The notes beneath the pieces are model-generated. The model saw nothing but the letters and a program-made list of their open reading frames with translations. It was not told where the DNA came from and did not search any database. 64,000 nucleotides of DNA, taken from Octopus vulgaris. Its lineage: Eukaryota. Positions within the stretch are counted from its first letter, which is position 1, and each line of letters begins with the position of its first letter. Shown here piece by piece: positions 52,328 through 52,651 of this stretch. A program made the translations under genes and the position numbers. The stretch covers positions 225,308,001 to 225,372,000 of the forward strand of contig OX597814.1 in assembly GCA_951406725.2 (NCBI GenBank), in the 5' to 3' direction.

Positions 52328-52388
52328 GATAAAACTCTGAGTTTCGGATGTCGGGACGGAAATCCATGCCGCTATCTCTTCAGTTATC
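52328..52388 (-). ncRNA. Type-I hammerhead ribozyme motif (minus strand)
   Basis: GATAA CTGAAGA GAT...ATC C GAAA CTCAGAG TT TTATC. Stem I is GATAA/TTATC, stem III is ACTC/GAGT, and the triplet is GUU. Confidence 0.7.
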
Positions 52389-52572
52389 CAGCCATCGAAA
52401 AAATGCTATGAAAATGACCGTTAAACAAAGGGAAATTACTGTGTGATTGACCGTTATTAAGACAAAAGAGCTATTAGAATGACCGCTAAGAGCGCGGTGG
52501 AATTTGAAAACTTATAACATATAAACACGAGGTATGTTCTTTATTGCCTTGCCTTTATATGTTAGCCTTAGC

Positions 52573-52651
52573 TTCCTGCTGAAGAGGGCAACGCCAATTG
52601 TAAATTATTTTATTTACAAAAGATTGCTTGAAACTATGCATAGTCCAGGAA
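52573..52651 (+). ncRNA. Type-I hammerhead ribozyme motif (plus strand)
   Basis: TTCCTG CTGAAGA GGGCAA..[TTGTAAAT-tatttt-ATTTACAA]..TTGCTT GAAA CTATGCATAG TC CAGGAA. It has a 6-bp stem I, intact core boxes, a palindromic stem III and a GUC triplet. Confidence 0.82.

Follow-up and report, generated by a model that had tools for sequence, protein, structure and literature searches.

Opposite-strand hammerhead motifs in an octopus locus probably combine a Penelope-like tail and a retrozyme-like fragment at one microsatellite

Viroid-like RNAs are circular, replicating and compactly folded, and those described as bearing ribozymes in both polarities resemble the locus reported here in having one hammerhead per strand; this locus, however, is a linear, single-copy DNA composite whose parts have separate parents. 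It lies within a 64-kb stretch of the Octopus vulgaris genome (hereafter the window). A closer comparison is offered by the dual min-HHRs of Schistosoma, which the account of Cervera and De la Pena (2014, PMC4209133) places about 100-700 bp apart on opposite strands and derives, as probable, from truncated Penelope elements; the same account describes hammerheads with a palindromic helix III as dimer-dependent and weakly cleaving in vitro. The octopus pair shares with these the opposite-strand arrangement, the spacing range and a palindromic helix III. Its own two motifs come from different families and keep a helix III, and, as far as that account portrays its motifs, those of one octopus family (family A) differ in an unpaired base beside stem II on the 3' side. 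Penelope insertions with inverted pLTRs and microhomology at their 5' junctions are presented by Arkhipova et al. (2013, PMC3846280), who explain the inverted arms by self-priming. The present locus is comparable in its head-to-head inverted arms with short overlaps and its microhomology at the 5' junction, and that study also records one family inserting secondarily into another in the reverse orientation; however, self-priming of the kind set out there cannot alone yield arms of two families.

The two motifs are separated by 184 nt. The first, on the minus strand (52328-52388), belongs to family A and consists of a stem I of 5 bp, CUGAAGA, stem II, GAAA, a stem III that is nearly palindromic around a single central nucleotide, and a GUU site, with a predicted cut between 52333 and 52332 and a predicted dependence on homodimers. 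An extra C, common to the whole of family A, separates its stem II from GAAA, and its fourth stem-II pair is altered in a manner seen in few other family-A copies. The second, on the plus strand (52573-52651), belongs to family B and has stems I and II of 6 bp each, separated by CUGAAGA, stem II containing a G10.1-U11.1 wobble and enclosing an inner hairpin of 8 bp, then GAAA, a stem III of 12 nt that is perfectly palindromic, and a GUC site, with cleavage predicted directly after 52645. Both possess the CUGANGA and GAAA core, an NUH site and three helices in type-I order. A strict hammerhead descriptor gave two matches in the 64-kb window, namely these two motifs, versus none in 100 rounds of block-wise dinucleotide shuffles (6.4 Mb). 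An Rfam scan of 46000-58000 reported neither hammerhead at E<=1, returning only microsatellite-driven miRNA matches, and in neither motif was the hammerhead the MFE fold of the monomer (z -1.11 and -0.42), the hammerhead folds scoring -8.2 versus an MFE of -12.6 kcal/mol in one case and -13.5 versus -14.3 in the other. Relatives of the family-B motif (locus records L113-L121) display compensatory changes on both sides of stems I and II, by a script count made without a shuffle control; the stems of family A are mostly invariant, so that little covariation is visible. We regard both hammerheads as confirmed at the level of motifs, with cleavage a prediction from sequence. The minus-strand GUU motif and the plus-strand GUC motif, with the hairpin inside its extended stem II, are present just as a first-pass annotation of this DNA had described them. 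Its spacing of about 185 bp agrees with the measured value, its setting of the pair in an island between microsatellites is borne out by (CA)n(TA)n at about 52160-52221 and (TG)n from 52789, and its view of the motifs as unrelated outside the core accords with the lack of significant similarity between the two arms that carry them (best blastn E 0.67, word size 7). No second same-strand hammerhead site was found in the island, and the 569-nt island folds in a manner that is not unusual (z -1.66, with 5 of 100 shuffles as good), with no compact rod-like or branched structure. Elsewhere in the window, a perfect 24-nt tandem of 2.2 copies at 43311-43362 contains CTGATGA, for which a motif scan found no hammerhead closure.

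The minus-strand motif is part of arm A (52214-52490, minus), the 5'-truncated, non-coding 277-nt 3' end (3' UTR/pLTR and a tail of about 100 nt) of a Penelope-like family, 93-95% identical to dozens of copies and represented by 5376 first-look candidates in the genome. All 28 aligned places of family A end at the identical point in (TA)n, and truncation points on the 5' side vary between copies. Longer copies have a 3' UTR of about 850 nt upstream and, beyond it, the end of a GIY-YIG-type ORF (L100, L063, L103); an A-type end also follows such an ORF in L026, which has an internal deletion, and at most EN loci. A search with the GIY-YIG piece returned 150 matches, of which about 100 share one identical score and, judging from their sequence, are a very young sister family of A with open frames of up to 717 aa and, in the stretch of arm A, 77-83% DNA identity. 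A-type ends follow the 717-aa frame in L092 and a 337-aa frame in L100. Read in translation, the 717-aa sister-family ORF has RWK, DKT, a CxCX5C linker, CxxC and CxH, and is devoid of CCHH. Searches of the 717-aa protein against Pfam and PDB found nothing; its 848 homologues include 120 listed ones, which carry no element names. The assignment of GIY-YIG and RT domains rests on motifs, because Pfam is blank for this ORF and gave a sub-threshold GIY-YIG match for the L026 piece (E 0.022).

The Hydra clade, with a C-terminal EN+ architecture, targets (TA)n and carries canonical hammerheads in the description of Craig et al. (2021, PMC8557442). The family of arm A resembles the clade so described in its RWK, DKT and CxCX5C linker, in CxxC and CxH near the end, in the absence of cysteines from the interval between GIY and YIG, in a unit of <3 kb, and in its (TA)n targets, canonical hammerhead and inverted 5'-truncated partner; it differs in that the window holds the non-coding end, the full ORF being read from the sister family. 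Furthermore, (TA)n targeting, partial tandems and inverted 5'-truncated arms are all present in family A and its sister. Based on these motif-level agreements, rather than on a tree, we place the putative parent of arm A among the Hydra-clade Penelope-like elements. Decayed RT fragments with 35-48% identity to the 717-aa protein occur in the window at 35344-36120 (minus). A separate 1129-aa open frame at 19940-23326 (minus), with a second decayed copy near 57300-58540, is by appearance presumably a non-LTR endonuclease/RT ORF. In >100 records of the young sister family (L091-L095, L122-L181), the hammerhead has a GUU site and a variant core, CCGAAGA or CCGAUGA (U4C). The U4C change is reported to reduce hammerhead activity in vitro (PMC3088659), and high mobility of the sister family seems to need no canonical hammerhead core.

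The plus-strand motif is part of arm B (52492-52788, plus), a 0.6-unit fragment that spans positions ~178-481 of an ORF-less tandem unit of about 480 nt, with 2078 first-look candidates in the genome. The unit end adjoins the unit start in most copies, and the 3' half of the hammerhead occurs as 19 exact tandem pairs spaced 445-475 nt apart, as against none in a reversed control; the unit measures about 465-500 nt and arrays extend to at most about two units. When 75 locus records (duplicates included) were queried with three Penelope proteins, no ORF contiguous with family B was found: Penelope-protein matches occur in four of the 75, those in L202 and L185 being, on reading, not contiguous with B and those in L042 and L055 lying 370-750 nt away from it. 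A search for an autonomous parent of family B found none. Low in GC, circularly permuted and with a type-I hammerhead in tandem units, family B is like the ORF-less non-LTR retrozymes as presented by Cervera and De la Pena (2020, PMC7229834) and Li et al. (bioRxiv 10.64898/2026.07.22.740005), but its unit exceeds the ~300 nt given there as typical and its arrays are short. These characters fit a non-LTR retrozyme-like repeat. Several subfamilies are represented among tandem dimers of the unit (L112-L121), in which the hammerheads covary and stem II carries a long, AT-rich insert. Unit positions 182-187 are the start point in five of 30 locus records, the window included, and may possibly mark a truncation hot spot or a natural 5' end, though the start of the query there may bias this count.

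The 3' end of arm A abuts a (CA)n(TA)n microsatellite (52160-52221), and to the right of arm B a (TG)n microsatellite (52789-52812) leads into a common dispersed repeat, which we take to be SINE-like; the stretch 52770-53029 has matches of about 70% at several loci. Together these flanks resemble a single (CA)(TA)(TG) compound microsatellite that has been split in two, and they are likely the left and right halves of the target. The A/B junction (52488-52494) includes no microsatellite and has 3 nt of microhomology: GTG is found in both the continuation of family A and the start of family B, and the window reads GAG, with one mismatch. Elsewhere in the window, a 2-kb (TATG)n array occupies 45918-47901 and a 184-nt unit is present in 2.6 tandem copies at 63007-63494.

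We then examined whether the two halves recur together, as the first-pass annotation had suggested, and found the junction to be unique. A search of the 2.8-Gb genome with 52217-52785 had one full match, the window itself (40 of 5376 candidates scored), and the remaining matches cover either query positions 1-274 or 276-569, the changeover between them being abrupt at 52490/92. When a junction query of 81 nt was used, the window was again the sole full match (40 of 1212 scored), other matches comprising the left ~41 nt and two extending to 51-61. A pattern of the two exact cores with a spacer of 172-200 nt had one match in 2.8 Gb, which is the window. Among 211 locus records screened for other spacers, both families occur together in the window and in L050/L106, and also in L043, where 1.3 kb separates them (the counts of 137 and 80 in this screen are of records with duplicates, not of places); in L050 they stand in tandem with (TA)n between them, a geometry different from that of the window. 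Simple nesting of A and B is ruled out, as no remainder of either family was found elsewhere in the 64-kb window. The supposition that each half would occur apart from the other and next to its own Penelope ORF thus holds for the separateness of both and, as regards the ORF, for the minus half and not for the plus half. Three public DNA runs, which bear two organism labels between them, include contigs with this junction at 0-1 differences; the contigs have 28 nt on the left side, under a 31-nt bridging rule, and the join is probably genuine rather than an assembly error; public-run contigs also have loose ends at 52490. No RNA run was listed among the holders of the sequence; in four of four runs presumed to be RNA no contig covers 52502-52653 or the junction, and they bear neither way on expression.

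We propose, with a probability of roughly 60%, that the island is a single-copy composite of unrelated ends, a Penelope-like tail and a retrozyme-like part, left by successive insertions at the same TA-rich microsatellite. In both families 3' ends are placed at (TA)n, and both arms in the window are 5'-truncated. Priming of the later element's new DNA would have taken place at the microsatellite, and the 5' end of that element would have been attached to the earlier copy through microhomology, with loss of the intervening microsatellite and of a portion of the older copy; subsequent deletion between two neighbouring copies might have had the same outcome. Each hammerhead would act in the tandem RNA of its own family, likely as a homodimer formed through the palindromic stem III, and no cooperation between the two is predicted, because they face outward on opposite strands and have different palindromes. 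Of the chance head-to-head fusion of two Penelope pLTRs that had been offered as one explanation, the fusion is upheld by the unique join and the separate halves, and a Penelope parent is found for the minus half alone, the plus half being the retrozyme-like unit. We favor the sequential route because it is seen in this genome and needs nothing new.

This is best appreciated from the young sister family, of which we surveyed 52 copies without a listed inverted partner (four further unpaired young copies being excluded from this count) and eight of the 21 listed inverted pairs. A same-family inverted arm lies within 40 nt of the 5' end in 33 of the 52 and in all eight listed pairs, with overlaps that are mostly 0-8 nt; head-to-head arrangement is the usual product of sister-family insertion, in line with what PMC8557442 and PMC3846280 describe for Penelope elements. 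Both arms are long enough for comparison at 35 loci, 11 of which are informative at shared variant sites; subfamily variants are identical in both arms at nine of these, the two that differ doing so at one G>A site, and one-step inverted arms therefore derive mostly from one source. In L127 and L158 a young copy (98.5-99.5%) leads into an inverted piece of 51-93 nt and then into a repeat of the opposite orientation, for which the best relatives show 86% and 79-83% identity; with old partners and young copies, these are cases in which a young element joined an old neighbour. In at least four more of the 52 (L145, L149, L165, L168) the 5' end is joined to DNA other than microsatellite, in one case midway along a dispersed repeat, which agrees with target loss; in L140 the copy continues into the start of an ORF that belongs to a different Penelope-like family. 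None of the 52 was found joined to a young copy from another family, the dated mixed cases being L127 and L158 and not L140 or L145. Two features of the island count against sequential insertion. Its arms are age-matched, with 6/270 and 7/290 private differences, as would be expected of a one-step event, and its clean head-to-head join with both 3' ends on the microsatellite mimics the usual one-step inverted insertion.

These same features bring up a tentative alternative, namely one insertion involving two RNAs, in which a Penelope enzyme would have nicked both strands of the microsatellite and copied a Hydra-family RNA at one nick and a retrozyme RNA at the other, the resulting strands being joined at the 3-nt microhomology. 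In the experiments described in PMC11167929, the Penelope enzyme of a lizard was able in vitro to cleave both strands of the target and to extend them, and family B, with no ORF of its own, depends on an enzyme in trans. The geometry of the island is the same as that of the same-family inverted insertions, its arms match in age, and direct head-to-head joins of family A to another family were identified by eye at three of 28 places (the window, L005 and L017). At L017 the end of a GIY-YIG ORF of another Penelope-like family (698-1204, minus; Pfam E 2.5e-5) stands directly head-to-head with a family-A copy, the two being 93.5% and 93% identical to their nearest relatives and hence age-matched. 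However, no young-young mixed join appeared in the survey of 52, both dated mixed cases had old partners, the shared source variants at nine of 11 loci speak for one source in same-family arms, and the partners of A vary by case, so that none is specific to B. We retain the two-RNA explanation as an unlikely but live one because the window and L017 are age-matched and the lizard enzyme extends both strands in vitro; we rate as slightly more doubtful still the specific claim that the composite is the fossil of a single Penelope insertion primed on a Hydra-element transcript and a retrozyme. No published statement of two-RNA Penelope priming was found in the literature searched. If it were true, the inverted arm of Penelope insertions could derive from a second RNA in trans, and a Hydra-clade enzyme would be named as the mobiliser of an animal retrozyme. 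At L005 (~1770-2300) arm A is abutted head-to-head by a further repeat family, the third here, whose CUGANGA core lacks a nearby canonical closure; a 74% copy of this family lies in the window at ~25700-25850 (minus).

Microhomology joins are not specific to insertion, and both families are abundant (at 5376 and 2078 first-look candidates), which would suit an origin from two copies that inserted at more distant points and were brought together long afterwards by a larger deletion or rearrangement independent of retrotransposition; we consider this improbable, as against it the flanks look like the two parts of a single (CA)(TA)(TG) microsatellite and fit a single target site. The first-pass annotation's other proposal, a non-coding, viroid-like ambisense mobile unit that self-cleaves in both polarities, has in its favor two intact cores on opposite strands and a junction recovered in three public DNA runs, but is very unlikely and we set it aside, given that the island is single-copy, each half has a separate family of its own, the two ribozymes were not found travelling together genome-wide, the fold is ordinary, the cassette displays no circular permutation or terminal redundancy, with dissimilar arms and ends that run into microsatellite, and no unit-length monomer could be excised because each strand has a single site and the ends are not redundant.

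Viewed as a cassette, the pair is thus of little importance and ordinary in origin: opposite-strand hammerhead pairs are a by-product of Penelope insertion, and a viroid-like reading of such pairs requires a copy-number test. Of modest value are the retrozyme-like family of ~480 nt and the very young, abundant Hydra-clade family, with its open ORFs, mostly inverted insertions and arms mostly from a single source. The inverted insertions of this sister family (L122-L181) provide a set of cases from which the mechanism of Penelope inversion can be studied, and if mixed junctions do arise in one step, they would provide a genomic handle on both the formation of inverted arms and the enzyme that moves retrozymes.
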